Source of the DNA: Deltaproteobacteria bacterium
Lineage (GTDB): Bacteria; Myxococcota; SpSt-1050; JACRCP01
Direction of reading: 5' to 3'
DNA: 64,000 nucleotides
NCBI GenBank assembly: GCA_016218965.1
Contig: JACRCP010000248.1
Location: 10,517 to 74,516 of the forward strand
Part shown: positions 11,605-47,533 of the stretch, piece by piece
Layout: every line of letters begins with the position of its first letter
Numbering within the stretch: position 1 is the first letter of the stretch
Program-made: the position numbers and the translations under genes
The notes under the pieces: model-generated
The model's input: only the letters and a program-made list of their open reading frames with translations
Database searches by the model: none
What the model was told of the DNA's origin: nothing

Positions 11605-11756
11605 CCGTGTTGTCGCACCCGTTGTGTGGTTCGTGATTGCCGACTCCACGACATTGGCGTTCGACATCCGGGCCGCACAAACCTGCCCAAAATCCCTTTC
11701 ATATGGTATATTTGTAAAAGTTGCCTGAACTTGAGACGGCATTCCCGGAGGTTGTC

Positions 11757-20306: not shown

Positions 20307-20337
20307 CTGGGACATGCGAAACTGACGGCGGGCTTTC

Positions 20338-21186: not shown

Positions 21187-21704
21187 ACTTCGTGTTCAGG
21201 GCGATCCCGCCGGCTCTCGTGGCGGCGCTTGCCGCCGCGCTCGTCCCGCCTCTTGGGCGTGAGTTCGCGCCCGGATTCCGGTTTGACGTATTCCTCCCCA
21301 TCGTCGCATTCGTCGCCACCGGGGAACGGCTTTTTTTTTGCATCCCCGCCGCGTGGTTTTTGGGCGCGGCGGCGGACGCGCTCGCCGGGACGCCTGCGGG
21401 CACCAGCGTGTTCGGGTATCAGGTGATTGTGGTGGGAATGCACGCGGCATCCCGCTGGCTGAGCTTTCGCTCGCCGACCGGCTTCGGGTCGCTCGTCCTG
21501 CTGCTGGCCCTGTTGAATTCGTCGGTCCAGTATCTCGTTCTGACCATCGTCGGGCACAAGGCGGTCCTCGAGTGGGGAGTAACGACGGCCGACGCCCTTA
21601 GAACCGGCCTCTGGGGGGTGGCGGTCTACTTCCTGCTGGGCGGGGCCGAGCGACTTGCCGGCAGGCTCGTCGGCCGGGCCCGCGATGGAAAGGGGGCCTC
21701 GTGA
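21183..21704 (+). CDS. mreD: Rod shape-determining protein MreD
   Basis: Small polytopic membrane protein. ATGA overlap with mreC and GTGA overlap with pbp2; position in the mre operon. Confidence 0.8.
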   Translation: MNFVFRAIPPALVAALAAALVPPLGREFAPGFRFDVFLPIVAFVATGERLFFCIPAAWFLGAAADALAGTPAGTSVFGYQVIVVGMHAASRWLSFRSPTGFGSLVLLLALLNSSVQYLVLTIVGHKAVLEWGVTTADALRTGLWGVAVYFLLGGAERLAGRLVGRARDGKGAS

Positions 21705-23746: not shown

Positions 23747-23754
23747 GAGAACGG

Positions 23755-33900: not shown

Positions 33901-36427
33901 GGTTCCAGCGGATCGTCCGACCGGCCCTGTCGAACGTCCCGCCGTCTTCGGGAACCACGTTTTCGAACCTGGAGTCGACCTGGTCGAGCACGTACGCCGC
34001 CTCGGCCACCCTGTTGCCGGAATTGGCGACCGTCACGACGAATCGAACCGCCTCTCCCGGGGCGATGGTCCTGCGCCGGTCGTCCGCGCCGAAGATGGCG
34101 GCCTTTTTTGATGTCGAGAAATCGGGCGCGACGGTCACGAACAGTTCGGCGCTCACGGTCTTGGATACCGAGCTGTCGGCGGGTGTGGTTATCACCGCTG
34201 TGTTCTTGATTTCGGTAGTGCCGGAGGGGAGTTGATTGACGATTCTCACCCTGTACTTGATCTCGGCGACCGCCCCGTGGCCGGCCAGGTCGAAGCCGTC
34301 GACAGTGAGCACGCCGCTCGTGAAATCCCATCGCGCACCCGGGGGGAGCGGACCGACGTCGAAGGTGTACTCGACGTACGGCGAAAAACGGTCGGTGACG
34401 ACGACGGGGACCGTGCGGTTTCCGGTGTTTCTTAGCGTGATGGAGTACTCGAGCGTGTCCCCGGGCGCGGGCGGGTTTGACGTCTTGTCGACAACCGCCT
34501 TGCTCGATGCCGAGAAATCCGGGGCGTATGTGAGCGTCACGACGGTCGGGTCAGCGCCCCCGGGCTTCGCGGGGTCGTCGGTGAGCATAGGCGACGCGAG
34601 CGCGGGGCCGGTGAGTGTCCCCTGGTTGCTCACCTGATAGCCGTGGATTTGCGTCCTCGAGCGCCACTGGTCGGCCGTGTCGATCTTGACGAGGAAGGTG
34701 AACGTCACGCTGAAGCGTTTCGGGACCGATATCCCCTCGATTGACACCTTGGATGCCGTGGACCGATCGGTCGAGCCGCCGGGCGGGTTGACCTTTGTGA
34801 CGGTGGTGTGCGCGGGCGCGTTGTCTTCGAATTTGAGCTCGTTGACGTCGTAGTCCGACTCGTTCTTCAGCGTGATCTCGTACTGGAGCGTGTCGCCCGG
34901 CTCGACAAAACCGCCGTTTAAGTCGGCGACCGTCTTCGTGATTGATTTTACCTCCGGGGCGCGGACGGTGGTCTTGACGGTATTGGTGTTGACCGGCTGG
35001 GTTTCATCCGACGAGATCCGGGCGCCGTTGGTGATCTCGGTGCCGCTTCGCCTGCCGGTCTTGATTCGGACCTGGAACTTGACCTTTTTTGCCGCCGTCC
35101 CGACCGCCAGATCGCCGATGTTGAGCCCCGACCCCACCGAGAGCGGGCACTGCCCTCCCCTTCCGTCGGCGGCCGGCACGTCGTCTACCGTCGTGCTCCC
35201 CGGGATGTAGTCGGTCCCGGCCGGGATGGTGTCGAAGACCTTCACGTTGTGGGCCAGAAGCGACCCCTCGTTCTTGACCCAGATCGTGTACGTGAGCGTC
35301 TCGCCGCCCCCGGCCACGACCTTGTCCACGTCCTTGACCGTCCCCGACCCGTGAAAGTCCGGGGCGTAGGTGTCGAGTGCGAGGACCATGTAACCAAGGA
35401 ATATGCTTTCGCCGCCCCCGGTGAGTGACAGCGGATCGCCGACATTGCCGTCACCGGAGCCGACTTGAATCGACGCGTTCGTCTGGCCGGACTGAAGGAT
35501 GTTCAACCCGCCGACTCCGACATTGAACGTGTCGATGTCCACTCCGACGCCGTCCACGGATTCGCCCTCGATCGTGCTGTTGAAAACGTTGTTCGGAGGA
35601 TTGGCGGTGTCGGTGAGTTTCACGCTGTTCAACGAGAGGAAATCATTGCACGTCTCGCAGTAGAGGGGATGATCTTTCGGAAGCTGTTTCTGGAAAGGTT
35701 CGCCCAACTGATCGTCCCCTTCGAGCCCGAAATACGCAAACTCCGCATAGGCGGGGTTTCCGACTGTGAATCCTCCTATGCTCATTGGCGACGAGATGCC
35801 GGTGCGGTCGTCTTCGTCCACGTGATAGAACCCGTCGTAGATCACAACGTCGCGGTACTTCCTCTGGCTCTCCGCACTCCAGACAACGACGAGCGACCAC
35901 CCGGCGTAACGGGCCTGGCACCAGACGTCCGTGTCGCACGAGGCCGAGATCCTCGCGTCAACGTTTCCCACCGTGTACAGACCCGACAACGTGGGAAGCC
36001 CCGTCAGCAGGTCAGTGACGCGTTTCCTGCAGTAGAAGAAGGAGCCTTTGTCCCCGGTGTCGACTTGGTAGCAGGTGTCCGCGACCAACGAGGCGTGTGT
36101 AGGCGAATTCGGCGGTGTGAAGTCGGCGGTCGGGCTCGAGTAGATGTTTTTCGACCCGGACCAGAACAGCCAGGCCTCAACGAGTTTGCCGTCGGCCGGG
36201 ATCGAGGTTATCGGGGCCGTTTTTTCCGGAAGCAGGACGCAGTTGAAACGCCCGGATTCGATCGGGCACCACTGGGTGAGAGTCGCCCCGGTCTTGGCCA
36301 CCGAGCCGAGGAGCCGGTTGACGGTATAGAGTGGGGCCGGCGGGTAGCCGTCGACCGTCGCGCGCGCCTCGGGGGAGGCGGCCAGCGCCAAGAGGAGGAA
36401 CAGGCATGAAACGAGGCGTCTTTTCAC
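24986..36427 (-). CDS. Giant secreted protein (~3810 aa): N-terminal unique domain, ~20 DUF11/CARDB-like 'conserved repeat' modules, SdrD-B/CnaB-like and Big domains, and a C-terminal ~900-aa region with beta-barrel character
   Basis: Signal peptide (LLLALAASPEARA). Repeated '...PDFS.SK......G..L.Y.I...N.G...A..V...D.L' modules. 'FCDSNGNGAQDPGE' is SdrD-B-like. The C-terminus has alternating hydrophobic strands and ends '...GFFVRLTGQY' (terminal aromatic). Confidence 0.8.
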   Translation of the reverse strand: MKRRLVSCLFLLLALAASPEARATVDGYPPAPLYTVNRLLGSVAKTGATLTQWCPIESGRFNCVLLPEKTAPITSIPADGKLVEAWLFWSGSKNIYSSPTADFTPPNSPTHASLVADTCYQVDTGDKGSFFYCRKRVTDLLTGLPTLSGLYTVGNVDARISASCDTDVWCQARYAGWSLVVVWSAESQRKYRDVVIYDGFYHVDEDDRTGISSPMSIGGFTVGNPAYAEFAYFGLEGDDQLGEPFQKQLPKDHPLYCETCNDFLSLNSVKLTDTANPPNNVFNSTIEGESVDGVGVDIDTFNVGVGGLNILQSGQTNASIQVGSGDGNVGDPLSLTGGGESIFLGYMVLALDTYAPDFHGSGTVKDVDKVVAGGGETLTYTIWVKNEGSLLAHNVKVFDTIPAGTDYIPGSTTVDDVPAADGRGGQCPLSVGSGLNIGDLAVGTAAKKVKFQVRIKTGRRSGTEITNGARISSDETQPVNTNTVKTTVRAPEVKSITKTVADLNGGFVEPGDTLQYEITLKNESDYDVNELKFEDNAPAHTTVTKVNPPGGSTDRSTASKVSIEGISVPKRFSVTFTFLVKIDTADQWRSRTQIHGYQVSNQGTLTGPALASPMLTDDPAKPGGADPTVVTLTYAPDFSASSKAVVDKTSNPPAPGDTLEYSITLRNTGNRTVPVVVTDRFSPYVEYTFDVGPLPPGARWDFTSGVLTVDGFDLAGHGAVAEIKYRVRIVNQLPSGTTEIKNTAVITTPADSSVSKTVSAELFVTVAPDFSTSKKAAIFGADDRRRTIAPGEAVRFVVTVANSGNRVAEAAYVLDQVDSRFENVVPEDGGTFDRAGRTIRWNLGDMAPAAQKAVAFTARAKTPLDSGLKIFNQAFVYSKEVITGVPTDDPATSAADDPVTLAVTFPYDFSGSAKAVQGDTGGVVKAGDLLTFTVTVVNASPGGLNDLLVVDTVDRGLSDVSVQAGTYNTITRAVNWTVPRLDFGRSVALTFTARVLPPTRPGSFVENFATVTGGGASLKTNTVRLAVVEQPGFTASTKVATPDGSFANRTHKFQAGSKVIWLVTATNTGTVAATNVTITDAVDTQNLVNITVRDGGQIAGGVITWTVPSIGIGAFWTVSFEADVRTPIKNGTTIRNQASIVCAENQYPANSDDPDTVTPADPTIVTVESAPDFILSRKTASVGGSPAASLKPGDTVTFEITAVNTGNAEATGVVIEDTVDTSRLTVQTYPGGTFDGKKVRYSIPSLGVGAQNAAKVSFAALVRQCVSGQVENLAHISAAEVPNGFNTPKIVLPVSGAGAGGTFEKRASFALTPVRPGDRVEYSVAFTPKDQVKLCGAKLSDVVDSNLEDVQVSAGTYDPATRTVSFLPAAGADGGVGAFAYTFGAKVKKPLKDGTVVSNQAVLSASNLGAPFSSDDPATPAAADPTVFKVASTAFVYATKQADRPQAPPGGTVSYTITLTNIGDAIAEGGTLRDDISSIAGFLDAATPLDGGTYDPAGHVLSWTLPPLGLSPPNTYTYRFNARLKTGIPDGTEIANQAVAKGSNFVDAYSDADGDPKNGYQPTVVTVLNKPVFSSSTKLPYTATGAAIPADQEVSPGDQIVFKIEVKNTGTIDAHDVTVTDLVDSTNLAGVIPASGGAFDGARISWGPAQTPALKLIPSGGKTALSFACSVAASAAPGTKISNQAAVESSEGVKDVTDDPRTPAKSDATTLVVRSAASPDLSASAKAAAPSRSPLRSGDRIRYSITVKNVGRTDATGTTLTDLIDPQTSRYVAGSTTLNGRPIADSRGGKFPLEAGLKVTSASFGAMPGADEGRIVPWDGRGSDDELAVVTFEVTVLPGAQVVKNKARIDRDGGQPVWTNETVVPVGDVPFIPALAKTWFLKTDANANGVADKGDVVEFVLSFENAGAAAAGDVALRDPLSDRVSYVPGSMMVQRDGGAMVALTDAADGDQGRFDAADGVRGSVRLLLSDLGPGGRVRFAFDVTVGECGGFANQATLTYGGGVSVLSDADGDAGNGAQETVVPTCGGEQIFLSAAKDAADLNGGSLMPGDQVLYTLTLLNQGSGDLEAVTLEDDIPAHTTFKNDPKNYTVPQDAVLSFLPAPSGRYTRGKLVVTKLTIPRAASPADAVKLSFLVTADKDAVRGDQVKNAAVVYSPKFKQTTNTVSLIVGGTEGTAMVKGRVFQKRDTKETQFSEGKDIPLRGYTVAVDQETGSSRSAAPRPAGPASPGKRTARVLVDAAGSFEVANLAPGRYRLTVYSQNGVPFAGIAGIDLKEGDVHRSDMAIVPAGVIYDARSGEPIENATVVYYPDGASGLSLPSQKVPKELRVQKTDWTGMYAAELPAGGAYRIEVSGPSPSMIFPSGTYPPIAGYAKAAADGYVSTDFSERSRGAPYYLRVDSGKDEFVLKNNRIPLDRAESAFRIEKNVSKPEAARGDILTYTVTVQNLSSKAFRPSGAARTGGVSIHDYLPSGLRFIQNSARLYRAVNGKEKADTTVDAAGAAEISFGAISIGASETVRLRYEAVVGLEAKTGVLNNRARLYIEGRAVDVDASAPVRVVEDPIFDQGLLIGKVFCDSNGNGAQDPGEDGLGGARVFMDTGWYSDVDETGKYHFKGIPAGYHLVKLDVATLPPGSLPTGEVVKGLNFTPGLPAKVNFGVDCRLKKFAAARVDRTSEKVPGRTEPGPDAGAAPHETDWAEYGSRLTTDDAGTPTHDQRLTTRDGGALPDSSFNAGLPTPDAGLQPPAYSPQPSEDRSLATWVELPPPGYVARHEFLTFRGGTTPGNTVIVGSQAVPVREDGSFYATVKLAPGKNLVEVTAEDPAGHRSRVSYTIEYDPERVFVLALGEGIAGMGGLDLDGVSTASSLRVWNGVNWPGMLFHGRGVLYVKGMAHRRATFENIEYTLHFDTAKQRELAHEYFKEAYNPERYYPVYGDSASEVQDVNARDKLYLLVKADDSRLLVGNFVSDLRGVELLRYNRAFYGVDADLNRAAFDGNLGNRVKGFVSQDYDEIAHDRLVLRPTGGSVLYLRNGAVIEGSDRVDLVVRDKDSGLDVLRRTLARDIDYSMGYGEGRIILKQPVSATADSFSPLLGPGRQLAGHPVFLEVDYDYSAILAGGNRAYGARVEETVFKMLRLGGGYVKEEAKGREAYSIWGADAVLSVGKTAALKAEFAQSRSFDSTVYFSDDGGLSFISSGGGILPQNGIGGSAWMFEAQGDVGEALGKDGRRLALKAYAQDMDPGFSAGTSVLQQGMLKYGFDSSKTLPGDMELRFKGDALSVSIPPQPLTESAGAREMSFDKYSAYGSWQKKLGPWKVLAEDNYIYFRDNIVAPEEVHTDIAGAGLSYALSRRWELFGAQQGVMGGDPKLYDSFADRMFSTVGARYTIREGLVVGASETARWSGDNATQLGLKVPLSDSGTGSAYVNEKLGSWNGQFVTSSVLGAEDQGIPGTRTYGEYQVDSVSSNAMNRSVFGLNNRWPIAKGTYFNLDFEHTQVLGGAAYISSTDTALGAIPLSSSPYTAYGRPNQAAFAGDSRSPLQGRQAGLKSDESALSAGALVPYYGLNYPLGMMEGDAARDVFAVGLEFLRYEFFKIGTRLELRFDNADEHWNGQDRFQYLATLGSTWRFTRDLSFLAKLSVSDTQNQRYERREAAFMEASFGFALRPVNFDWINLIFKYSRLYEFRNFDVTADDAAQEIYSDIFSLIPIVETPFRLQIVEKLALKHAVSQSYAQPWTAVNMVLWINRLNFHLWKERIDLGAEYRVLVLLDLEKKDGYLAEVAIIPAKNIRFGVGYNFSSFSDNLYESLNHDASGFFVRLTGQY
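28186..28345. repeat. ~160 nt in 7-nt register inside the giant ORF: (GGCTNNA)x4, spacer, then (GAGTCGT)x7 (revcomp TCACGAC); copy 1 of a composite element also present at 52941-53012
   Basis: Read directly: 'ggctgta ggctgga ggctgga gtccggc atcagga ... gagtcgt gagtcgt tggtcgt gagtcgg ... cggtcgt gagtcga'. On the minus strand it encodes a low-complexity linker (..THDQRLTTRDGGALPDSSFNAGLPTPDAGLQPP..). Confidence 0.55.
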
Positions 36428-37283: not shown

Positions 37284-38473
37284 TGAACGCGGTCGAAGCC
37301 AAGAGTCTCTCGAAAGTCTACCGGCTGTACCCCAATCCGCGGCAGCTCCTGGTGGAGTACCTGACGTTTCGGCGGCGCCGGACCCATGCGGAGTTTTGGG
37401 CGCTCAAGGACATCACGTTTTCGGTCCCGCGCGGAGGGGTGTTCGGGTTAATCGGCGACAACGGCGCGGGCAAGAGCACCCTTCTCCGCGTCCTCGCCGG
37501 CGCCACCCAGCCGACCTCCGGGACACTCGTCGTCGAGAGCCCTTCGGCCTCGCTCATCGACCTCGGCACGGGGTTCAAACCCGATTTCACGGGGCGTGAC
37601 AACGTGCGCCTGAATTGCGCGCTCCTCGGCTTCAACGCGCGTCAGACCGAGGAGGCACTCCAGGACATTGTGGCGTTTTCGGAACTCGGGAAGTTCATCG
37701 ACTATCCCCTTCAGACGTACTCATCGGGGATGATCATGCGCCTGGGGTTCGCCGTTGCGGCAAGCGTCCCTTCGCGCGTGATCTTCATAGACGAGGTCAT
37801 CGCGGTCGGCGACAACTACTTCCAGCACAAGTGCATCGACCGCCTCTCGGCGCTCCAGCGCGACGGCCGCACAATCGTGTTCGCCACCCACAACCTTCAC
37901 GCCGTCAAGACCATGTGCCACCAGGTGATGTGGCTCAAAAGCGGCGTGTGCGAGGCGCTGGGCCCCGCCGAGGATGTCGTGGCGCGCTATAGCGACTACA
38001 CGCGCGCGCGGGACGGATGCGCCGCCGAAGAGCAGCACGCGGTGACCCACCAGTCCAGGCATGTTTCGGTCCTCGGGGTGCGCGTGGTGGGGGCGGACGG
38101 GCGCGAGGCGGCGGAGTTCGAGACGGGACAGCGCGTCGCCGTCGAGGTGGATTTCCGCGCCGACGCCCCGGTTGTCGACCCCGCGTTCGGCGTTGCGATC
38201 CACCGGAACGACGGCGTCTACTGCTTCGGACCGAACACGGCGTGGGACAAGGTGCTCTACGGTGAGTACTGCGGCGACTACCGGCTCTCGATCACGTACC
38301 CCGCGCTCCCCCTGCTGGCCGGGAGCTACCTGGTGTCGGTGGGCATCTTCGACCGGGAACACGTCGTCCCGTACGTGTACCACGACCGGATGTACGGTTT
38401 CGCCGTTCGAACCTCCCGTCCGGAATACGGCATGGTTCTGATCGAGCACGAGTGGGGGATCCGAAAACTGTGA
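37283..38473 (+). CDS. wzt: ABC transporter ATP-binding protein (Wzt/TagH family) with C-terminal substrate-binding beta-sandwich extension
   Basis: Walker A (GDNGAGKST), signature (YSSGM) and Walker B (IFIDEV), plus a ~150-aa C-terminal domain typical of Wzt proteins that recognise a terminally modified glycan. The track ORF from 36710 is a spurious extension. Confidence 0.85.
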   Translation: MNAVEAKSLSKVYRLYPNPRQLLVEYLTFRRRRTHAEFWALKDITFSVPRGGVFGLIGDNGAGKSTLLRVLAGATQPTSGTLVVESPSASLIDLGTGFKPDFTGRDNVRLNCALLGFNARQTEEALQDIVAFSELGKFIDYPLQTYSSGMIMRLGFAVAASVPSRVIFIDEVIAVGDNYFQHKCIDRLSALQRDGRTIVFATHNLHAVKTMCHQVMWLKSGVCEALGPAEDVVARYSDYTRARDGCAAEEQHAVTHQSRHVSVLGVRVVGADGREAAEFETGQRVAVEVDFRADAPVVDPAFGVAIHRNDGVYCFGPNTAWDKVLYGEYCGDYRLSITYPALPLLAGSYLVSVGIFDREHVVPYVYHDRMYGFAVRTSRPEYGMVLIEHEWGIRKL

Positions 38474-39396
38474 CGACGCGCCGAATCGGAATAGACCTCA
38501 CCGCAGTCTGCAATCTGCGCTGCACGATGTGCGCCCTCGACCGGTTTCACCCGTCGCGGGGGGTCCTCGATTTTTCGCTCCTTGGCGAAATCGCGGCCGG
38601 CCTGTCTTTTTTCGACGAGGTTCACGTAGGGTGGTGCGGCGAGCCGCTCATGCACCCCCGATTCGCCGAGGCGGCGGCGCTTCTCAAACGCGCCGGTCCG
38701 CGGCTGGTGGTGACGACCAACGGCACGCTCCTCGACCCGGGCACCGCGGACGCGCTGGTCGACGCCCGCCTCGATGTCTTGAACGTTTCGATCGACGGCT
38801 CCACGCCCGAGCGTTACTCGCGAATCCGCCGGGGCGGCGACCTGCGGGCGGTGCTTTCGAACGTGCGGACGTACCTTGCGCGGCGGAAGCCCGGGCAGTG
38901 CGTGAACATGATCTCGACGGTCCATGCGGAAAACGTCGACGACATGGAAGACCTCGCGCGCCTCGCCCGCGACACGGGGTTCGACGCGATGGCGTTTAAT
39001 TTCGCCGTCCCGCACTTTTCGGAGATCGTGTCCTCGGACAGCGGGACGTTCGACGCGGCCCGCGCCGTCGGGCGGGCGCGCGAAGCCGCGGGGGCTTTTG
39101 CAGATCGGGTAGTCGCCCCGTCGTTTTCGGCCTCTCGGGGATGCGCGTATCTCACGCCCGCGATCACCCCCGAAGGGGACCTGGTACCGTGCGCCATGAT
39201 GCTGTTCGAGCGCGACACGTTCTATCGGGGGCGGGCGGTGCGCGTCGCGCGGCGTTCGTTCGGAAACGTCGGCGCCGTCCCGCTCTTGCGAATCATCGAG
39301 TCGCCGGACTATCTGGCGTTTGTCGGGACTGCGCGCGCGTCCAGCGCGGATTCGTGCGGACCGTGCGCGCTCAACGCGGGCTGTTTCTGCCCGTGA
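38452..39396 (+). CDS. Radical SAM enzyme with C-terminal SPASM-type Cys cluster (rSAM #1)
   Basis: CxxxCxxC (CNLRCTMC) near the N-terminus and a C-terminal CGPCALNAGCFC cluster. The start is ATG 38452 or GTG 38470, both overlapping the wzt stop. Confidence 0.8.
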   Translation: MGDPKTVTTRRIGIDLTAVCNLRCTMCALDRFHPSRGVLDFSLLGEIAAGLSFFDEVHVGWCGEPLMHPRFAEAAALLKRAGPRLVVTTNGTLLDPGTADALVDARLDVLNVSIDGSTPERYSRIRRGGDLRAVLSNVRTYLARRKPGQCVNMISTVHAENVDDMEDLARLARDTGFDAMAFNFAVPHFSEIVSSDSGTFDAARAVGRAREAAGAFADRVVAPSFSASRGCAYLTPAITPEGDLVPCAMMLFERDTFYRGRAVRVARRSFGNVGAVPLLRIIESPDYLAFVGTARASSADSCGPCALNAGCFCP

Positions 39397-40438: not shown

Positions 40439-41266
40439 GTGCACCAGGTCTTCAGATCGCGCCGGCTCATGCGGGCCGGCGTCCGGAACCTCCTGAACAT
40501 CCGCACCCGAAGGGTTTCGCTTGCGCCCCCGGGACTTCCACGGGCGTTTGACGGGTTTTCCATCCTGCTCCTCTCGGACATGCACCTCGGGTCGATCCCC
40601 GAGCTCGGGCCGGCTGTCGTCCGGGTGATAGAGGGTCTTCGCGCCGACGTCTGCGTGTTCGCCGGCGACTTCCGCCTTTATGCGCACCAGAGCGGCCCGA
40701 CGTTCGAAACGGACCTGCGCCGGATCGTCGATGCGGTCCGCGCACCGGCGGGCCTGTACGGCGTCCTCGGGAACCACGACACGATTGACGACGCGCGCCT
40801 TGCAGATTGCCTGGGAATCAGAATGCTCGTCAACGAGGCCGTGTCGATCCGGCGGGACGGCGCGACCATCCGTCTCGCCGGGGTCGACGACCCCCACACG
40901 TACCGGCTTGACGACCTTGACCGCGCTCTCGCCGGCGCCCCGAAGGGGGCTTTCACGGTCCTTGCCGCACACACATCCGAGATCGCCGCCGACGCGGCGC
41001 ACAAGGGCGTCGGCCTTTACCTGTGCGGTCACACGCACGGGGGGCAGATCTGTCTTCCCGGGGGCGTGCCCCTGCTGGTCTCGACCCGGTCGCCGCGGGC
41101 GTACGCCTGCGGCGAATGGGACCTGCGCGGAATGAAAGGCTATACGAGCGCCGGGGTCGGGGCGTCCATCGTTCCGGCCCGGTTCAACTGCCCCGGGGAG
41201 GTTGTCACAATCGAAATGAGGGCTAAAAGCAGTCGGACTCGCCCAGCTCGTACCAGTTGCCCTTGA
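40439..41266 (+). CDS. Calcineurin-like metallophosphoesterase
   Basis: Motifs D.H (SDMHLG), GD (FAGDF), GNHD (LGNHD), and GH.H (CGHTHGG). The N-terminus may extend upstream, since the frame is open back to 40319. Confidence 0.75.
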   Translation: MHQVFRSRRLMRAGVRNLLNIRTRRVSLAPPGLPRAFDGFSILLLSDMHLGSIPELGPAVVRVIEGLRADVCVFAGDFRLYAHQSGPTFETDLRRIVDAVRAPAGLYGVLGNHDTIDDARLADCLGIRMLVNEAVSIRRDGATIRLAGVDDPHTYRLDDLDRALAGAPKGAFTVLAAHTSEIAADAAHKGVGLYLCGHTHGGQICLPGGVPLLVSTRSPRAYACGEWDLRGMKGYTSAGVGASIVPARFNCPGEVVTIEMRAKSSRTRPARTSCP

Positions 41267-41405
41267 GCGGCGGCTCGGCCTTCGGGGCCTTCGGGGCCTT
41301 CCCGGCGGCTTTTGCCTTGTGGGCATCTTCCTCTGAGAGCTGGTATTTCTTGAGGACGTCGGGCGGAATCTTGTAGAGCTTCCCCTCGATGACCGTGTAT
41401 TTTTC
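41223..41405 (-). CDS. Candidate independently translated small peptide (61 aa), in-frame with rSAM #2: MEKYTVIEGKLYKIPPDVLKKYQLSEEDAHKAKAAGKAPKAPKAEPPLKGNWYELGESDCF
   Basis: Has its own Shine-Dalgarno: AGGAGGG is 9 nt upstream of the ATG on the minus strand. It lies beyond the end of the SPASM domain. It contains K/A/P repeats and a single Cys at the C-terminus. Confidence 0.3.
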   Translation of the reverse strand, partial: EKYTVIEGKLYKIPPDVLKKYQLSEEDAHKAKAAGKAPKAPKAEPPLKGNWYELGESDCF

Positions 41406-42341
41406 CATTCGTCCGTTCCCTCCTGCGTTCGCCGTACGCACTATATCATATGCCCGCGCAAAGGCCAATTTCAGACGGCACTGCGGCCCTTGTCTCTTTG
41501 ACCCCAACTTGGGGACGCATCGCGTACAATCCCGGAGAGCCGGGCAACGGCTGCACGCCGCCGAATCGACGATCAGGCGCGCGGCATTCGAAACCGGGCT
41601 TCGGTGGCAGGGGAGCACCGTCCCGTCGGGTTCGATGGTCATGGTATCCACGCCCGGATTGCAGGCCGCCGCCCTCCCCTCGCGCGCGCGTTCGAAATCG
41701 GACACGCGCGGGAGGACGCCGGTTTTTACCCCTCTTTCGTATTCCGCGGCCAATGCGCACAGCGAGCCGTCGAGGCGTTGAATCGGGCGGGGACCCCATC
41801 GGATGTTTGCCGCGGGGGCGATTCCCAGTTGCGTAACGCCGATCCCCGCGAGGTACAGCGCGTCGTCCCGGACGTGTCCCGCGGAGGCGGGCGTCACGGT
41901 CATCCGGACTGCCGTCGGCACGCCCGCCTTTGACAGCAACTCGAAGGCCCGAACGACCCTTGCATGCGTCGGAGACCCGCCGGCCGCCCTCCTGTGCCGG
42001 TCGTGCGTTTCGGTCTTGCCGTCGAGCGCAAGGGACACGGAGATGCCGTTTCGCGAAAGGAACCCGGCGGTCCCGGCATCGAGCAAGGTCCCGTTGGTGT
42101 TGAGCGTGAAAGCGCATTCCGGGTGCGCCAAAACCGCGGCGCGCAGCAGTTCGAAACGGAGCAGCGGCTCCCCGCCGAAGAAGACGACATCCCTCTTCCC
42201 GCGCGGGACGCGTTCGACAAGCGTGTCGAAAGAACGGATCATCGCCCGCCGGTCGGTTCTCCGCACGCGCCCGCCGCGGCCTGCGTAGCAATACCCGCAA
42301 CGGAGATTGCACGCGCCCGTGAGCTTGAGAACGATTCTCAT
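41223..42341 (-). CDS. Radical SAM/SPASM enzyme (rSAM #2) carrying an in-frame 61-aa C-terminal extension
   Basis: CxxxCxxC (CNLRCGYC) and a SPASM cluster (CSRCPALRDCTRC...C). The ATG overlaps the stop of the upstream GT2 gene (ATGA). The ORF reads through 'GGNGR' into the peptide-like tail with no stop. Confidence 0.75.
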   Translation of the reverse strand: MRIVLKLTGACNLRCGYCYAGRGGRVRRTDRRAMIRSFDTLVERVPRGKRDVVFFGGEPLLRFELLRAAVLAHPECAFTLNTNGTLLDAGTAGFLSRNGISVSLALDGKTETHDRHRRAAGGSPTHARVVRAFELLSKAGVPTAVRMTVTPASAGHVRDDALYLAGIGVTQLGIAPAANIRWGPRPIQRLDGSLCALAAEYERGVKTGVLPRVSDFERAREGRAAACNPGVDTMTIEPDGTVLPCHRSPVSNAARLIVDSAACSRCPALRDCTRCVPKLGSKRQGPQCRLKLAFARAYDIVRTANAGGNGRMEKYTVIEGKLYKIPPDVLKKYQLSEEDAHKAKAAGKAPKAPKAEPPLKGNWYELGESDCF

Positions 42342-43111
42342 CTCCCGCCACCGACCGCCCACCGCCCGCCGCCAAGCCGTGCGAGCCTGCCCGATCTCAC
42401 CCACTTCTCGAGAAACCGTTCCTTTCCCTTAATTCGTATCTCGAGGTCGTCGGGGCGGAGCCCAAAGCTCGCGGACTCCTCATGGATGAAGACGGCCGAG
42501 GGCTCGTACACGCTCGACCAACCGGCCTCGACGAAACGCAGGCCCATGTCGCAGTCATCGTACATTCCGAACCCGAAGCCCTCGTCAAGGCCCCCCAGTT
42601 CCCGAAAAGGCGCCGTCCGCAGAAGGATCGCCGCGTACGTGATCATGTCAAGCTCCCGGGGCTCCAGGACCTCCGGGGCGTGGCGGGTGAAGTATCGGTA
42701 CCTGTGGACGGGAATCCCTTCGCTCCCGATCTCGATCCCCGCGTGCGCCACCGTAATGCCGTCCGGAAACAGGAGCAGCGCGCCGACCGCTGCCGCCCGG
42801 GCGCGCTCGTCGAGCGCTCGGGACATAGCGGTGTCCCATCCGCCGAAGGGCACGACGTCGGAATTGAGAAGGAAGAAACGGTCAGATTGGACCAGCGACG
42901 CACCGCGGTTTGCCGCCGCGGGGAACCCGAGGTTTCGCTCGTGCACAACCGCGCGAACCCCATGCCTTCGTGAGCAGCCCCGGACAAGCTCGCGCGTCGC
43001 CGCATCCGGGGACGCATCGTCGACCAGGATCACATCGTGTCCGCGGAGATGCCCGAGCAGGCGTGCGAGGCCGGGGGCGTTGCCGTACACGGGGATGACT
43101 ACTTCAGCCAC
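42338..43111 (-). CDS. Family 2 glycosyltransferase
   Basis: GT-A fold motifs: VILVDDAS, DxD-like (NSDVV) and a C-terminal acceptor region. Overlaps both flanking rSAM genes. Confidence 0.85.
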   Translation of the reverse strand: MAEVVIPVYGNAPGLARLLGHLRGHDVILVDDASPDAATRELVRGCSRRHGVRAVVHERNLGFPAAANRGASLVQSDRFFLLNSDVVPFGGWDTAMSRALDERARAAAVGALLLFPDGITVAHAGIEIGSEGIPVHRYRYFTRHAPEVLEPRELDMITYAAILLRTAPFRELGGLDEGFGFGMYDDCDMGLRFVEAGWSSVYEPSAVFIHEESASFGLRPDDLEIRIKGKERFLEKWVRSGRLARLGGGRWAVGGGR

Positions 43112-44022
43112 GGGGCGTGCTCCGGCGCAAGGTACGAAAGCGCGTAGGGTCCGTCAATGAAACACTCCGGTTTGAAGCACTCGGACTTGAGAGCGTCAAG
43201 GACGAGGCCGTCCCATCGCGCGGGGACTTCCCCGATCGGAAGCGCGAGTTCGTGCGAGTGGCAGAGCCTGAATTTCCCGTCGGGGTCCACGACGCCGGTC
43301 AGTCCCTTGCACGCGCAGGGCCTGTGTGCGCCCGTCCTCAAAAACCGCCCGATGGCCGCGGTGAAATCAAGGTTCCCTTTTGCGCGATCGGGAAGCCTGT
43401 TGAGCACGGTATCGAGATTGGCCACCTGCGCCGGCGTCCAGGAGACATCGGACTCCCCTCGAAAATACGAACCCCGGACAGCCGGCCGGAGCGCAACCTC
43501 GCAGTCATAGTACTCCGCGACCGCGGCGACATCCAGAAGCGCCTCCGCCCCGCCCGGCGCCACCGTGACCGACAGCCTCGGGCGCTTCCGGAAGTGGTCC
43601 CTGACAAAGAGGATCCCCCGGAGAACCTCGTCGTAGCTCCCCGTTTGCCCGTGGCGCGCGTCGTGGACGGGGGCAAAGCCGTCGAGCGAAAGGCAGACCA
43701 GAAGGTCGGGGTCGGCGCCGGCAAGCCTTTCGAGAACAGGCCGGGCCTGCCACGCGTTGGTGACGACCGCGCGCTCGTGCGCGCGCGGGAAACGCCCCCT
43801 CGCCCACGCGATCGCCTCGGCGAGCCTGGGAAAGAGCGTCGGCTCACCCCCGAACCAGTTCAGGTACTCGAGGCCGTCGAAGAACGGGTGCCCGAGGGCC
43901 TGTTTGATTCGGTCAAGGTCAAGGAATTCGGGGGGTGAAGGCGCCTGCTTCCAGATCGAACAGATGGTGCACCTGAGGTTGCACCGCCATGTCACCGCGA
44001 TACTAAGGAGCTTGAGCGCCAT
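43099..44022 (-). CDS. Radical SAM enzyme with C-terminal Cys-rich (SPASM/twitch-like) region (rSAM #3)
   Basis: CxxxCxxC (CNLRCTIC) and C-terminal cysteines (RPCACKG...RLCHSH...ECFKPEC). The start was chosen at MALKLL; the track ORF extends to 44052. Confidence 0.7.
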   Translation of the reverse strand: MALKLLSIAVTWRCNLRCTICSIWKQAPSPPEFLDLDRIKQALGHPFFDGLEYLNWFGGEPTLFPRLAEAIAWARGRFPRAHERAVVTNAWQARPVLERLAGADPDLLVCLSLDGFAPVHDARHGQTGSYDEVLRGILFVRDHFRKRPRLSVTVAPGGAEALLDVAAVAEYYDCEVALRPAVRGSYFRGESDVSWTPAQVANLDTVLNRLPDRAKGNLDFTAAIGRFLRTGAHRPCACKGLTGVVDPDGKFRLCHSHELALPIGEVPARWDGLVLDALKSECFKPECFIDGPYALSYLAPEHAPWLK

Positions 44023-44176
44023 CGACGCGGATTTTAGGGCGGTCCGCGTCATTTGGCAACGCTTCGGTCCGCGCCAACGGTCCGTTTCGACCAGCGAGTT
44101 CGCAGATCCTTCTCATTTGACACCACGGGTGCCTGTCTATAAGATCGGTTCCGACAGACGGCCAAGAAGGGCACCG

Positions 44177-44866
44177 ATGCTGAACAGCCTTGACGAAATC
44201 CGCGATCGCATTGTCCGGTCGTACGACCCGGAACGGATAATCCTTTTCGGGTCGTGGGCGCGGGGCGAGGCAGACGAAACTAGTGATGTCGATTTGCTGG
44301 TCATCAAGGACACCGCGGCCAGGCCGCTCGATCGCCGCTGCACCGTGGAAAAAATCCTTCTTGATAGAGACGTGCCGCTGGACCTTCTCGTCTACACGCC
44401 GGCAGAGGTCCGCTACCTGTATTCCATCGGGAGTCCGTTTATCGAAGACGTCATGGAAACCGGGAGGGTCCTGTACATGCGGAAGGCGACGGAAAGCTGG
44501 GTCGGGGACAGCGAAGAAGAGTTGAGAACCGCACAAGTGCTGATCGAACACGACAGATTCAGGGGCGTCTGTTACCACAGCCAGCAGTGCGTCGAGAAAG
44601 GACTCAAGGCGGCGATCATCGAGAAAGGCAGCCGTCCCGAAAAGACCCATGACGTTCTTGAGCTTCTGAAGGAGGCCCGCAACCTGGGGTTCGAGATCCC
44701 CCTTGAGATGGATGACGCGGTCTTCCTGAACAGCATCTACAAGGGAAGATACCCGACCGAAGAGGGCCTTCTCCCGCACGGCGACCCGTCGCGCGACGAC
44801 GCCGAGCGCGCGTTGCGCGCGGCGGACTCGTTTTTTTCAGCCCTGCGCTCGTCTTTCGGTTGTTAG
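44177..44866 (+). CDS. Fused nucleotidyltransferase (Pol-beta-like MNT) plus HEPN-domain protein
   Basis: N-terminal GS...D.D NTase motif (FGSWARGEADETSDVDLLV). The C-terminal helical domain has an Rx4-6H-like element (RPEKTHD). The architecture resembles fused MntA-HepT or kanamycin-nucleotidyltransferase-type proteins. Confidence 0.7.
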   Translation: MLNSLDEIRDRIVRSYDPERIILFGSWARGEADETSDVDLLVIKDTAARPLDRRCTVEKILLDRDVPLDLLVYTPAEVRYLYSIGSPFIEDVMETGRVLYMRKATESWVGDSEEELRTAQVLIEHDRFRGVCYHSQQCVEKGLKAAIIEKGSRPEKTHDVLELLKEARNLGFEIPLEMDDAVFLNSIYKGRYPTEEGLLPHGDPSRDDAERALRAADSFFSALRSSFGC

Positions 44867-44999: not shown

Positions 45000-46727
45000 A
45001 TGGCTGACAGCAGGGCCGACCTGGCCCGCATCGATCTGGCCGCATCGATCGATCAGAAGGACTTCACCGCGCTTCCGCTCCAGCGGAGGCTCGAGCTGCT
45101 CCCGTACCTGCCGCCGTCAAGAAGGCGCAACTACGTCCTGGCCTGCGAGGACTCGAAGGCCCTCGTTGAGGCCATGCAACCGCAGGACCTTTTCCTTACG
45201 ATCAAGGAGATCGGGCTCCACGACGCCGCCGAGATCGTGGGGCTTGCGAGCCCCGAGCAGTTCCAGAACTGCCTGGACCTCGACTGCTGGAACAGGGACG
45301 TGATCGACGCGGAGACCTCGTGGCAGTGGCTGACGGTCCTGTCGGAGGCGGGCCTGGACGTGCTCATGGGCAAGGTCGGCGCCCTCGACTTCGAGGTCGG
45401 GATCGCGCTCTTCGCGGAGCACGTCAAGGTGTACGTTGCGAAGGAGGATTTCGATCCGGACGAGGGCGTCCCGCCCGGGAGTTTCACGGCGGACGGTGTT
45501 TACCACCTCGTGATCGACGCGTCCCCGGACCGGGTCGAACTCATCGAGAAGATGGTGACAGACCTGTTCCACCGCGACTCGGATCTGTACCTCCGGCTGC
45601 TCAGCGCGGTCCGGGACGGGATGAACGCTCCTGTGCAGGAGGAGGCCCTCAGGTGGAGGACCGCGCGCCTTGCCGACCTCGGGTTCCCCGACTACGTCGA
45701 GTCGCTCAAGGTCTACTCGCGGCCCGACAAGAAAAAGGAGCGGCGCGACCTCCGCTCCGCGGTCCCCAAGGGCGACGTTCCCCCTTCGTTTGCCATCATC
45801 CGGCACGACGGCCTGTCGGTGGTCCCTCTCGACGCCGCGGCAAGGGTCGACTCCGACGACGCGGCGGCCGTGGCCGCGGGGGCCGCATACCTTGTGAACT
45901 GGCTCGCGGTCGCCGATCGGGTGGACCCCGGCGATGTGACGCAGGTTCGCGAGCTGATGGAAAAGGCGCGCGGGTACGTGTCGATCGGGCTGCACGAGAT
46001 TGGGGGTGATCCGGCCAGGACACTCGCTTCGACGCCGATGCTCGACATCTTCAGAACGGGATTTGCCAGGGCAAAGGACCTTGCCGACAGGGCAAAAAGG
46101 ATCGTCGCCGAGCACCCCCTCATCGCGGGAGACAAAAAGGCCCTCCGCCTCGACGAGGTGAGCCGCGAGACCGTAGCGGCCCTGCTCCAGCCCAGGCCCC
46201 TCCTCTACCTCGGCGCGGTCAAGGACGGTGCGGCGGGCATGGGGCATTTTTCGTCCGCGCATGACGTCGCCGCCATCTCCGGTCTTCTCGACAAGGTCGA
46301 CGCCTCGGCCGAGGTATTCGGGACGGTGCTCAAGATATTCAAGAAGGACCTCCTGGCCCTCGATCTCAAGGGGCTCAACGTCCCGATCCGCGACGATCTC
46401 ACCGTGAGCCGGGTGTTCAACACCGCGGTGGCGCAGAAGGCGCTGAAAGACGCCTTCGTCCTTGAGCCCGTCGCAGCCGGTGACCTCGCAAAACTCCACG
46501 GCCTTCTCTTCGTGCGGTCCGGAGACGGATGGGACATCGCGCCGTCGGCGGCTGAGACCGTCAAAGACATCATGGAAGTGGTCGAACGGAAGCGCCCCGA
46601 CCTCCGCCGGCCCGCCATGCAGTTCATGAACGCCTGCCTCGAGGACCTGCGCGACAGTCTCGCCCACGTGGACTTCTCGAAAGAGGTCAAACCCGACTTC
46701 ATCGGGTCGCTCATCATCAGGAAATGA
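45000..46727 (+). CDS. Hypothetical protein (575 aa, alpha-helical, no recognised motif; possibly a Myxococcota-restricted DUF)
   Basis: Long open frame with coding-like GC3 bias, ATGA-coupled to the downstream DUF72 gene. Confidence 0.65.
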   Translation: MADSRADLARIDLAASIDQKDFTALPLQRRLELLPYLPPSRRRNYVLACEDSKALVEAMQPQDLFLTIKEIGLHDAAEIVGLASPEQFQNCLDLDCWNRDVIDAETSWQWLTVLSEAGLDVLMGKVGALDFEVGIALFAEHVKVYVAKEDFDPDEGVPPGSFTADGVYHLVIDASPDRVELIEKMVTDLFHRDSDLYLRLLSAVRDGMNAPVQEEALRWRTARLADLGFPDYVESLKVYSRPDKKKERRDLRSAVPKGDVPPSFAIIRHDGLSVVPLDAAARVDSDDAAAVAAGAAYLVNWLAVADRVDPGDVTQVRELMEKARGYVSIGLHEIGGDPARTLASTPMLDIFRTGFARAKDLADRAKRIVAEHPLIAGDKKALRLDEVSRETVAALLQPRPLLYLGAVKDGAAGMGHFSSAHDVAAISGLLDKVDASAEVFGTVLKIFKKDLLALDLKGLNVPIRDDLTVSRVFNTAVAQKALKDAFVLEPVAAGDLAKLHGLLFVRSGDGWDIAPSAAETVKDIMEVVERKRPDLRRPAMQFMNACLEDLRDSLAHVDFSKEVKPDFIGSLIIRK

Positions 46728-47533
46728 CAGTCATGCCCTGCCGCGTGTACATCGGCACGTCGGGCTATTCGTACGCCGATTGGCGGGGGGTGTTCTACCC
46801 GCCTTCGCTCGCCCAATCATCATTTTTGGAATTTTACTCCCGCCGGTTTCCCTGCGTCGAGTTGAACTACACCTACTACCGGATGCCCGACGCCGAAACG
46901 CTTTCGCGGATGGAGCAGAAGACCCCCGCGGGCTTCATCTTCACAATCAAGGCCCACCGCGAGATGACGCACGAGATTGACGACGTCAAGGCCGTGGAGA
47001 TCTGCAACCTGTACCTGAATGCCCTGGAACCGCTTGCTCGTGCGGGGAAACTCGGCTGCGTTCTCTTGCAGTTCCCGACGTCGTTTCACTACACCGACGC
47101 GAACCGCCGGCGCCTTGCAAAGCTCCTGGATATGCTCTCTTCATTGCCGCTGGCGGTGGAGTTTCGCGGGGGGGACTGGCTTCGTGACAGGGTCTACACG
47201 GGCCTGACGAAAAAGAACGCCGCGTTCGTCTGTGTGGACGAGCCGGCCCTTCCCGGGCTCATCCCCCCGCTGGAAGTCGTGACCGCGGATATCGGCTACG
47301 TCCGTTTCCACGGCCGGAACGGCGAAAACTGGTGGAGCGGCGACTCGGCGTCCCGCTACGACTACCGCTACACCGCGGCCGAGCTTGGCGAGTGGGCCCC
47401 GCGCCTGAAAAAAATCGCCTCGGAGACCGAAAAGGCCTTTGTCTTCATGAACAACCACTGGCAGGGCAAGGCCGCCGAAGCCGCCGTGATGCTCAAGGAG
47501 ATCCTCGAAAACGAGGGCCTCGAAACGGCATGA
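46724..47533 (+). CDS. DUF72 (UPF0759/TM1631-like) family protein
   Basis: N-terminal 'YIGTSGYSYADW' and the 'RFHGRN' region typical of DUF72. Confidence 0.8.
   Translation: MTVMPCRVYIGTSGYSYADWRGVFYPPSLAQSSFLEFYSRRFPCVELNYTYYRMPDAETLSRMEQKTPAGFIFTIKAHREMTHEIDDVKAVEICNLYLNALEPLARAGKLGCVLLQFPTSFHYTDANRRRLAKLLDMLSSLPLAVEFRGGDWLRDRVYTGLTKKNAAFVCVDEPALPGLIPPLEVVTADIGYVRFHGRNGENWWSGDSASRYDYRYTAAELGEWAPRLKKIASETEKAFVFMNNHWQGKAAEAAVMLKEILENEGLETA

Follow-up and report, generated by a model that had tools for sequence, protein, structure and literature searches.

A radical SAM enzyme with a conserved C-terminal tail and nested start signals: a possible fusion of a peptide-modifying enzyme with its own substrate

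Can a radical S-adenosylmethionine (SAM) enzyme carry its own peptide substrate as its C-terminus, and can a gene for the free peptide be nested within the same reading frame? The question is raised by rSAM #2, a radical SAM (rSAM) gene on the minus strand of a 64,000-nucleotide stretch of DNA from a metagenome-assembled genome of an uncultured Deltaproteobacteria bacterium (GenBank assembly GCA_016218965.1, contig JACRCP010000248.1, positions 10,517 to 74,516 of the forward strand). We call this whole stretch the window, and all coordinates refer to it unless a locus (L) or protein (P) handle precedes them. A preliminary description, made from the sequence alone, had noticed that the rSAM #2 open reading frame (ORF) runs past its SPASM domain through "GGNGR" into a short tail. 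Reading the frame confirmed this: the Cys-rich C-terminal half of the enzyme leads through the linker ...TANAGGNGR into MEKYTVIEGKLYKIPPDVLKKYQLSEEDAHKAKAAGKAPKAPKAEPPLKGNWYELGESDCF and the stop codon, without any stop in between. The best reading of this arrangement, which we hold to be slightly better than an even proposition, is an enzyme-substrate fusion with a nested peptide gene.

A conserved tail in the frame of rSAM #2

The fused ORF and its tail comprise the following elements.

41223 to 42404, minus strand: fused rSAM #2 ORF, 393 residues counted from the first GTG (42404)
41409 to 42341, minus strand: enzyme part, with the radical SAM core and the 7-Cys SPASM domain
41226 to 41408, minus strand: tail-coding sequence, 61 residues
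41406 to 41408, minus strand: internal in-frame start codon, Met333 of the 393-residue ORF and codon 1 of the peptide
41304 to 41399, minus strand: leader-like module (residues 336-367), a beta-hairpin (YTVIEGKLYKI) and then two short helices (PDVLKKY.. and EEDAHKAKA)
41277 to 41303, minus strand: low-complexity linker GKAPKAPKA, variable
41226 to 41276, minus strand: core EPPLKGNWYELGESDCF, always at the extreme C-terminus
41223 to 41225, minus strand: TAG stop codon, common to the fusion protein and the nested peptide

The true start of the enzyme is probably M22 (ATG at 42341..42339), which overlaps the stop codon of the upstream glycosyltransferase family 2 (GT2) gene as ATGA; the homologue P0002 begins at the equivalent Met. 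An exact look-up of the 393-residue protein with the GTG start found no match in the protein collection, and the annotated start probably differs. The tail is coding in the rSAM #2 frame because the GC content at third codon positions (GC3) is 0.7–1.0 in it; GC3 goes down to 0.55 at the junction. The span first given for the peptide, 41223-41405, was right at the stop end and 3 nt short at the other, since the ATG lies at 41408..41406. On the opposite strand, a convergent metallophosphoesterase ORF (40439-41266, plus strand; YaeI-like) overlaps the last 44 nt of the tail (41223-41266), including codons of the core, and the same overlap is seen in L001.

The tail has the layout of a precursor of a peptide that is made by ribosomes and modified after translation (a RiPP), with a recognition module, a floppy variable linker, and a near-invariant C-terminal core. 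AlphaFold2 (AF2), run on an 84-sequence alignment, gave a model of the fused protein with a mean predicted local distance difference test score (pLDDT) of 82 and a predicted template modelling score (pTM) of 0.78, in which the enzyme core lies above pLDDT 90. The module appears in it as strands E336-339 and E342-345 and helices H348-354 and H358-367 at pLDDT 60–78, and the peptide modelled alone gave the same hairpin-helix-helix followed by coil. The module motif G-x-[LIV]-[YF]-x-[ILV]-[PS]-x3-L-x-[KR]-[YF] is conserved. Between module and core, neither the sequence nor the length of the linker is conserved among homologues; in the window, KAPKAPKA is encoded by a perfect 9-nt tandem repeat of 2.8 copies at 41277-41301. 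The Lys/Ala/Pro repeat by which the tail had been described therefore exists, but only as a lineage-specific linker that is incidental to this lineage.

Fused or free, all family members share the near-invariant core WYE[LI]GESDC[FY], which varies only between Leu and Ile and in its last residue. Among seven tail-bearing proteins, the core columns E377-C392 are invariant except for residue 380 (L/F/I); the close-relative alignment shows an invariant C-terminal EPP-x-KGNWYELGESDC followed by F or Y, and the C-terminal stretch that holds Cys392 reads ...GNWYELGESDCF. The core is retained in the free peptides P0124, P0125, P0127, and P0130 as well as in P0128, and it remains near-constant although the enzymes are only 27–39% identical. 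AF2 models the linker and the core (374-393) as disordered, with pLDDT below 50 as at the junction (330-335). An invariant, disordered sequence that ends the protein looks like a substrate or a linear motif and is untypical of a folded domain. Between three high-GC relatives, the ratio of nonsynonymous to synonymous substitution rates (dN/dS) in the tail is 0.05–0.19 at a dS of about 0.6–0.7, indicating strong purifying selection. Pfam and NCBIfam contain no family model for the tail, which is almost certainly a conserved functional part of its family. A hint in the 84-sequence consensus that distant rSAM enzymes share a C-terminal "L..P..L...Y" module was discarded, as this is the ordinary SPASM C-terminus and not the hairpin-helix module.

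Could two separate genes simply have been joined, through a mistake in sequencing or assembly or because a stop codon was lost very recently? The preliminary description had raised both possibilities, and the local sequence could be taken in their favour: both other frames contain stops within TATGATATAG, just upstream of the Shine-Dalgarno (SD) sequence, and the junction resembles an intergenic region (AT-richer, with a promoter-like element and an SD sequence). The same junction, however, encodes a conserved, confidently modelled helix (H307-326), and the distribution of the tail makes such an accident extremely improbable. A first homology search found the tail in only 6 of 280 rSAM homologues (36–69% identity, all in frame), which bears out the earlier remark that typical SPASM enzymes lack it; in an alignment of seven close homologues, Met is invariant at tail residue 1. 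An exhaustive HMMER profile scan of 1.84 billion representative proteins identified 10 true clusters, or 11 with the window's own lineage. The fused members are P0001, P0002, P0003, P0004, P0005, P0006, P0126, and P0128, and the free members, 59–64 residues long, are P0123, P0124, P0125, P0127, and P0130. Fused loci occur in about 10 lineages with enzyme identities of 27–69% and GC contents of 40–66%. We read eight independent fused contigs from four sources (JGI, ENA, Logan, and NCBI): the frame is uninterrupted in seven of them, and L003 is in frame apart from a run of N; three more fused proteins are predicted besides. A profile of all tail-bearing enzymes revealed no close member of the clade without the tail: its scores leave a gap between 348 bits or more and 219 bits, and from 219 bits downward the next proteins have unrelated C-termini.

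The eight contigs and the three further proteins refute a sequencing or frame artefact, and a fusion that is present in every clade member down to 27–39% enzyme identity is not recent. Stop loss or gain is likely to have been an ancient route to fusion, as L013 keeps enzyme and peptide in one frame split by a stop. Two apparent stand-alone peptide genes turned out to be artefacts themselves: P0121 arose where L001 is cut by the contig edge while still in frame, and P0122 where the run of N in L003 shifted the frame of the gene caller, the real frame being fused.

Core-motif scans of genome and metagenome contig collections returned only known loci or chance matches. RWYELGE(SD) occurs by chance in an FtsX-type ABC permease (L008 4881-5021) and in an SRPBCC-family protein (L011 3041-3124), so motif-only searches for the tail family give false positives. 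In P0001, the closest relative, a 59-residue in-frame insert (ALSEVGEARCSRTGQRKG...LTRVP; L001 1-180, P0001 residues ~245-303) lies between SPASM Cys296 and Cys309.

Start signals at the tail and free forms of the peptide

The preliminary description had placed AGGAGGG 9 nt upstream of the tail Met, which is exactly where it stands. It had also named what would speak against its proposal, namely orthologues that uniformly carry the tail as a conserved domain without an internal ribosome-binding site. Orthologues do carry the conserved tail uniformly, but the internal ribosome-binding site is kept as well. The signals in the window and the sequences that precede the aligned tail start in its relatives are as follows.

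41418 to 41424, minus strand: SD sequence AGGAGGG, 9 nt 5' of the tail ATG, in the codons GCA GGA GGG
41440 to 41474, minus strand: sigma-70-like promoter element, TTGGCC-17-TGaTATAGT overlapping CTGAAA-18-TATGAT, within coding sequence
Window, before the start: GCA GGA GGG AAC GGA CGA ATG, encoding AGGNGR-M
L001, before the start: ACG GGA GGT CGC GAG GCA ATG, encoding TGGREA-M
L003, before the start: GCG AGG AGG AGC TCG ATG, encoding ARRSS-M
L006, before the start: GCA GGA GGT GGT TCA ATG, encoding AGGGS-M
L004 and L010, before the start: GAA AGG AAC AAC/AAA AGC ATG, encoding ERN(N/K)S-M, with SD sequence AAAGGAA
L015, before the start: CGA AGG GAG CAG ACG GTG, encoding RREQT-V, with GTG as the aligned codon
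L014, before the start: GCG GAG CAC GCC ATG, encoding AEHA-M, with a weak SD sequence and the Met one codon off

The aligned first codon of the tail, or its neighbour, thus remains a start codon with an SD-like motif before it, while the amino acids through which the motif is encoded vary by lineage and shift by two codons. In the window, the SD duplex energy is -10.8 kcal/mol, which ranks 10th among the 386 codon positions of rSAM #2; of the 187 other in-frame ATGs inside the 19 large ORFs of the window, a single one has an equally strong SD sequence. The motif is written in rare Gly codons, GGA accounting for 0.11 of the Gly codons. When the anti-SD duplex energy was ranked in this way against all codon positions of each gene, the lineages gave p = 0.008–0.21, with a Fisher's combined p of 3.3e-4 over five independent lineages. 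A conserved start with a ribosome-binding site inside a longer ORF, the mark of a nested in-frame gene, is therefore found here, weakly so in L014 and in L004/L010.

Further signals accompany the start in the clade of the window. The -10 hexamer of the sigma-70-like element ends 31 nt 5' of the tail ATG; the promoter scan gave three matches in 1.8 kb against 0.2 expected, and the same promoter-like element recurs at the same distance in L001 and L003 (background on this strand 0.11 per kb). Codons 311-322 lie in the 1st percentile of codon typicality, yet they encode the conserved, confidently modelled helix; the codons of the promoter element take small shares of their synonymous sets (TTG 0.06, GCA 0.09, TAT 0.16, GAT 0.17, ATA 0.10). 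Of 378 such stretches of 50 nt in the gene, only three are less structured than the one centred on the tail ATG, and its counterpart in L003 likewise ranks 4th of 148. The promoter-like element, the rare codons, and the unstructured mRNA are partly redundant signals. Rfam found no match at the junction. Taken with the conserved SD sequences, these features of the nucleotide sequence suggest that the free peptide is probably translated independently. Besides a conserved helix, this one reading frame appears to contain a promoter-like element, a second start, and the ribosome-binding site for it, which makes it a test case for dual coding.

Several observations weigh against independent translation. 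L014 has only a weak SD sequence (p = 0.21), as do L004/L010 (p = 0.11), and Gly-Gly or purine-rich linkers tend to look SD-like. The change from Met to Val in P0126 is also a conservative hydrophobic swap, so that the GTG may be there by chance. Searches beyond the high-GC clade turned up neither the promoter-like element nor the unstructured-mRNA signal, the latter being absent in L006, L014, and L015. The tail might then act only in cis, as a tethered substrate, pseudo-substrate, or auto-regulator that is never translated alone, with the SD sequence and the Met as by-products of a Gly/Arg-rich linker and a hydrophobic position. These weak or missing signals and the Val of P0126 would fit such a role, as would the fusion in all clade members and the NCBI annotation (HY897 locus tags; accession count MBI5527801 to MBI5527810), which lists no separate peptide gene. 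We nevertheless regard an exclusively cis-acting tail as unlikely. The SD sequence is kept while its encoding residues differ and move by two codons, rare codons are used for it, the combined statistics and the rarity of equally strong internal ATGs are hard to reconcile with linker by-products, and free-standing homologues exist.

P0130, a 59-residue peptide of L013, has its own GGAGG nine bases upstream and an intact core. Translation of L013 1742-3013 gives one continuous frame: a 285-residue rSAM protein, TGA, 62 codons, TAG, 14 codons, and then the ATG of the peptide. The 62-codon stretch between TGA and TAG is Cys-rich and SPASM-like. However the TGA is judged, the TAG separates the peptide from the rSAM part and obliges P0130 to be translated from its own ATG, so the peptide is viable as a separately translated product. 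An intact 424-residue paralogue lies directly downstream and overlaps the end of the peptide; the two rSAM copies that flank P0130 share 30–31% identity with the window enzyme. At its C-terminus, the intact copy has ...FVTLRRANGGLFRLPISALKRFEIKGG, which corresponds to the hairpin-helix module without linker and core. L013 1742-4275 appears to be a tandem pair of fused genes that degenerated in complementary ways, copy a having two in-frame stops in its enzyme part and an intact peptide, and copy b an intact enzyme and module and no core. With its own start and intact core, the L013 peptide shows that enzyme and peptide can be separated; a single stop codon in the linker distinguishes the split state from the fused one.

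The free peptides P0124, P0125, and P0127 combine an N-terminal extension with the same core. The search for stand-alone homologues, which had been suggested at the outset, was answered in two ways: P0130 lies beside rSAM paralogues, whereas the available DNA around these three free lineages contains no rSAM gene (in L002, 1.5 kb upstream and 8 kb downstream), which counts against the enzyme-substrate reading. P0125 and P0127 are each followed by a conserved gene of about 236 codons (L002 1816-2526 and L012 450-722); the two encoded proteins share 59% identity over 82 residues, begin with M[LF][IV]DLHFRF, and belong to no Pfam family. The 236-residue genes of L016 and L002 were considered as a conserved partner and rejected, since they are unrelated to each other. 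Across the family, 11 of 14 lineages have the peptide fused or adjacent to an enzyme of this rSAM clade, and it accompanies no other rSAM clade. Among the explanations first offered, a precursor made both free and enzyme-fused is now favoured by the bipartite tail, by the start and SD sequence kept across lineages, and by the separately translated peptide of L013.

The enzyme and its possible chemistry

What might the enzyme do to such a tail? Two regions of rSAM #2 define its class.

42288 to 42311, minus strand: CxxxCxxC motif (C32, C36, C39; CNLRCGYC) of the SAM-cleaving [4Fe-4S] cluster, near-invariant in the 84-sequence alignment
41478 to 41663, minus strand: SPASM-type auxiliary-cluster region, C248-x12-G261-x4-C266 ... 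C284-x2-C287-x5-C293-x2-C296 ... C309

Membership in the radical SAM superfamily is clear (PF04055, residues 27-172, E 8e-20, 72 bits against a cutoff of 29.5). Pfam finds the radical SAM domain only, with no match to PF13186 (SPASM) at E <= 0.01, but the seven-Cys SPASM pattern (Cx9-15Gx4C ... Cx2Cx5Cx3C ... C) is present with a last spacing of x2 instead of x3, and the seven Cys residues are invariant in seven tail-bearing proteins and near-invariant in the 84 homologues. By analogy with CteB, seven conserved Cys may leave one iron of the first auxiliary cluster open to a substrate thiolate. Among NCBIfam models, rSAM #2 scores best with PapB (135 bits), followed by the QhpD, nif11-peptide, CcpM, and SCIFF (six-Cys-in-45) maturases; cyclophane formers (YhhB, AmcB, FxsB, GrrM) and the anaerobic sulfatase-maturating enzyme (anSME) score below the thioether families. 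PapB, QhpD, and the SCIFF maturase are known thioether formers. The best sequence match in the PDB is CteB (E 4.9e-18), where CteB residue 99 aligns with query residue 24, so that the N-terminal peptide-recognition domain of CteB, the RiPP recognition element (RRE), has no counterpart here. Foldseek places anSME (4k39, the top match) and CteB (5wgg) at E of about 1e-16 to 1e-15, and ChlB, SkfB, and SuiB are also among the leading matches. rSAM #2 belongs with the Cys-modifying SPASM enzymes, lacks a recognition domain, and stands outside every curated family tested (PapB, SCIFF, QhpD, anSME, mycofactocin).

The general marks of a RiPP precursor, a leader/core layout and genetic linkage to a maturase, are both found, by fusion in about 10 lineages and by adjacency in L013. 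From the layout and conservation of the tail we consider it fairly likely that the tail is a substrate of its own enzyme. The rSAM/SPASM enzyme would then carry its probable substrate as its own C-terminus, and covalent tethering might replace the missing N-terminal RRE. The SD sequence and ATG at tail codon 1, together with the promoter element and the unstructured, rare-codon mRNA of this clade, would let ribosomes start internally, and a single locus could yield both the enzyme-peptide fusion and the free peptide, as the conservation of these elements suggests. The free peptide might be recruited by pairing between hairpin modules, a route that we propose because copy b of L013 keeps only the hairpin-helix module. 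One stop codon, gained or lost in the linker, could convert the fused form into the split form or back again.

For the reaction itself, the preliminary description had suggested a thioether or an aromatic cross-link, which enzyme similarity makes plausible; thioether formation is a tentative proposal drawn from the relatives of the enzyme. The thiolate of Cys392, the single Cys of the tail, may bind the open iron site of the auxiliary cluster; a 5'-deoxyadenosyl radical would take a hydrogen from the carbon next to a carboxylate, at Asp391, Glu389, Glu386, or the C-terminal residue, and a thioether ring would then close, by analogy with PapB, QhpD, and CteB. In CteB (PDB 5WGG, 5WHY), which shares the rSAM core and SPASM domain and is the solved structure that matches best by sequence, the first auxiliary cluster has an open site to which the substrate Cys binds. 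A selenocysteine at the position of the cross-linking Cys contacts an auxiliary-cluster iron directly in PapB and Tte1186 (PMC10177961). PapB joins Cys to the carbon alpha to the carboxylate of Asp or Glu without needing the leader, and it can use the C-terminal residue of a peptide, as shown for D- or beta-amino-acid termini (PMC12373016, PMC12715619). The core of the tail has one Cys (Cys392), Asp391, Glu389, Glu386, and a free C-terminus.

The differences from these systems are equally plain. The PapB maturase of the ranthipeptide freyrasin (NF047865), whose family is marked by a thioether from Cys to the beta or gamma carbon of Asp or Glu, matches rSAM #2 at 135.3 bits against a cutoff of 340; its substrate PapA is encoded separately and has six CxxxD motifs, with Cys ahead of Asp, whereas the fused tail has a single Cys after the acidic residues. 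The SCIFF maturase (TIGR03974; 78.9 bits against a cutoff of 425) acts on a separately encoded substrate with six Cys, unlike the fused tail with one. QhpD (TIGR03906), the second-best curated match at 85.7 bits against a cutoff of 453, makes Cys-to-Asp/Glu thioethers in a small protein that is kept in a protein complex and not exported. Unlike the tail, its substrate QhpC forms a subunit of its own, which carries several cross-links and a quinone cofactor, and no qhp genes (qhpA/qhpC) are neighbours of rSAM #2.

Some points count against a substrate tail and its thioether chemistry. rSAM #2 falls far below every curated NCBIfam cutoff, so the chemistry rests on analogy, and AF2 leaves the core undocked in the enzyme active site. 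Known thioether peptides usually have the Cys N-terminal to its acceptor, and in the tail it comes after the acidic residues. The loci compared share no conserved protease or exporter of the kind usual in RiPP clusters.

The tail might instead be a docking or ligand element and not a substrate, with Cys392 as an eighth cluster ligand or the acidic tail with its aromatic end as a short, partner-recruiting linear motif like the C-terminal tail of SSB; the free 60-residue proteins would then be adaptors or regulators. An invariant core that is predicted to be disordered and sits at the extreme C-terminus is typical of a linear motif, only seven SPASM Cys are conserved, three free-peptide lineages lack a nearby rSAM gene while two of them share the conserved neighbour of about 236 residues, and the missing RiPP protease and exporter point the same way. 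We find this alternative distinctly improbable, since the peptide is tied to this one rSAM clade in most lineages and the nearest relatives of the enzyme all modify peptides or proteins at Cys. Moreover, a substrate Cys on the auxiliary cluster is the catalytic mode of CteB, PapB, and Tte1186 (PMC10177961), and cluster ligation and substrate status are for this reason compatible.

It is also conceivable, if rather doubtful, that the same fused and free architecture serves another chemistry that leads to a conserved cofactor-like product: conversion of Cys392 to formylglycine as by anSME, a cyclophane at Trp384/Tyr385, or decarboxylation and cross-linking of the C-terminal Tyr/Phe as by MftC. 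anSME, which acts on Cys or Ser of a protein substrate, gave the leading fold match, and AslB is the name that JGI assigns to the homologues. The tail, however, lacks the anSME target motif C/S-x-P/A-x-R, and the match to the anSME model (TIGR03942) is 64.3 bits against a cutoff of 349; the clusters of anSME are fully Cys-ligated, as compared with the seven conserved SPASM Cys here. The cyclophane maturases YhhB, AmcB, FxsB, and GrrM do score, but under the thioether families. The invariant core with its fixed aromatic C-terminus recalls the logic of MftA and PqqA: mycofactocin (MftA/MftC/MftF) and PQQ (PqqA/PqqE) likewise derive from a short precursor with a conserved, aromatic-ended C-terminal core and an rSAM-SPASM partner, and the best NCBIfam match of the GT2 gene is MftF. 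Against this, MftC and PqqE are outside the 25 best families listed for rSAM #2, no MftB- or PqqD-like RRE protein and no GVY or E-x3-Y motif occur here, and the core ends in DC[FY], with a terminal residue that varies between Phe and Tyr. GT2 reaches 81 bits against the MftF cutoff of 280 and is absent from the other loci.

On the favoured reading, the system would function in the manner of a ranthipeptide or SCIFF-type maturase whose target is a C-terminal core. For its architecture, a self-modifying precedent exists outside radical SAM chemistry. Borosins (OphMA-type) and BURP cyclases carry the core at the C-terminus of the enzyme and occur naturally in fused and split versions (10.1101/2021.12.24.474128, PMC7878506, PMC10107690). 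Their enzyme classes, an N-methyltransferase and a copper-dependent cyclase of plants, are wholly different from that of rSAM #2. We know of no description, for either, of a nested start from which a free peptide would be made. If the reading is right, radical SAM chemistry would gain a counterpart to these systems in which the enzyme is its own substrate.

New peptide chemistry is discovered mainly through rSAM/SPASM maturases, and the mining of genomes for them presumes a separate small precursor gene and, usually, a recognition domain. The tail family breaks both assumptions, and tools that seek short ORFs beside rSAM genes would miss it. We found no rSAM enzyme with a fused precursor in the literature searched, in which subscription journals were thinly covered, so that this is weak evidence; the fused layout is also absent from the curated families of rSAM peptide enzymes. 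That this is the first rSAM system with its precursor as the maturase C-terminus and with a nested gene (own promoter and ribosome-binding site), giving a conserved intracellular cofactor or signal, is a bold proposal that we think unlikely in this full form. In that case, tethering and pairing of the hairpin-helix modules would stand in for the recognition domain, and the product would come from the invariant ...GESDC[FY]-COOH as something other than a variable antibiotic, with a logic like that of PQQ and mycofactocin. That the core hardly changes while the enzymes diverge greatly speaks for a conserved cellular role and against an antibiotic. A self-contained gene of about 1.1 kb for enzyme plus substrate could also be a tool for enzymology and peptide cyclisation.

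Genomic surroundings

In the window, rSAM #2 closes an operon with the order rSAM #3, GT2, rSAM #2 with its tail.

43099 to 44052, minus strand: rSAM #3, gene 1 of the operon (PF04055, E 1.4e-14), whose stop overlaps the GT2 start by 13 nt
42338 to 43111, minus strand: GT2 glycosyltransferase (PF00535, E 5.8e-15; best NCBIfam match MftF, as given above)

The genes mreC/D-pbp2-rodA (20326-24849) and the pair DUF6178-DUF72 (45000-47533) are common to the window, L004, L006, and L010. In the last three they directly flank the fused gene; in the window a 3813-residue protein, Wzm/Wzt ABC exporter genes, rSAM #1, DUF4438, the metallophosphoesterase, GT2, rSAM #3, and a nucleotidyltransferase/HEPN gene are inserted around it. 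GT2, rSAM #3, rSAM #1, DUF4438, and the metallophosphoesterase were not found with distant family members. We considered DUF6178-DUF72 and mreD-pbp2-rodA as conserved partners and rejected them as inherited synteny, since they are absent from L013, L014, and L015. No partner gene, protease, or exporter is conserved with the family across the loci compared, which fits a self-contained unit with an intracellular role.

DUF6178 followed by DUF72 (window 45000-47533, plus strand; L004 5297-7855) shows 41–58% identity and lies beside the fused gene in several relatives; DUF6178 appeared in no paper of the literature searched. rSAM #1 (38452-39396, plus strand) has a Pfam SPASM match and is closest to TIGR04317, the rSAM maturase of a tungsten-cofactor oxidoreductase, at 133 bits, below the cutoff of 380. 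It looks like a genome-specific insertion because it is missing from the otherwise colinear L001, where DUF4438 directly follows Wzt. An ORF that lies between DUF6178 and the rSAM operon (43757-44866, plus strand) combines nucleotidyltransferase and HEPN domains, which are typical of toxin-antitoxin or defence modules; the syntenic L004 and L010 lack it. Two giant ORFs encode 3813 residues (24986-36427, minus strand) and 2480 residues (11721-19163, plus strand); the former shows, by eye, many "DPxT..." repeats of the Ig-like/DUF11 type and lies between rodA and the Wzm/Wzt exporter genes. In L016, a gene of the alkaline-phosphatase superfamily (3-713; Phosphodiest/Sulfatase matches) overlaps the start of the fused gene by 4 nt, and on the contig of P0002 the upstream gene likewise overlaps by 4 nt.

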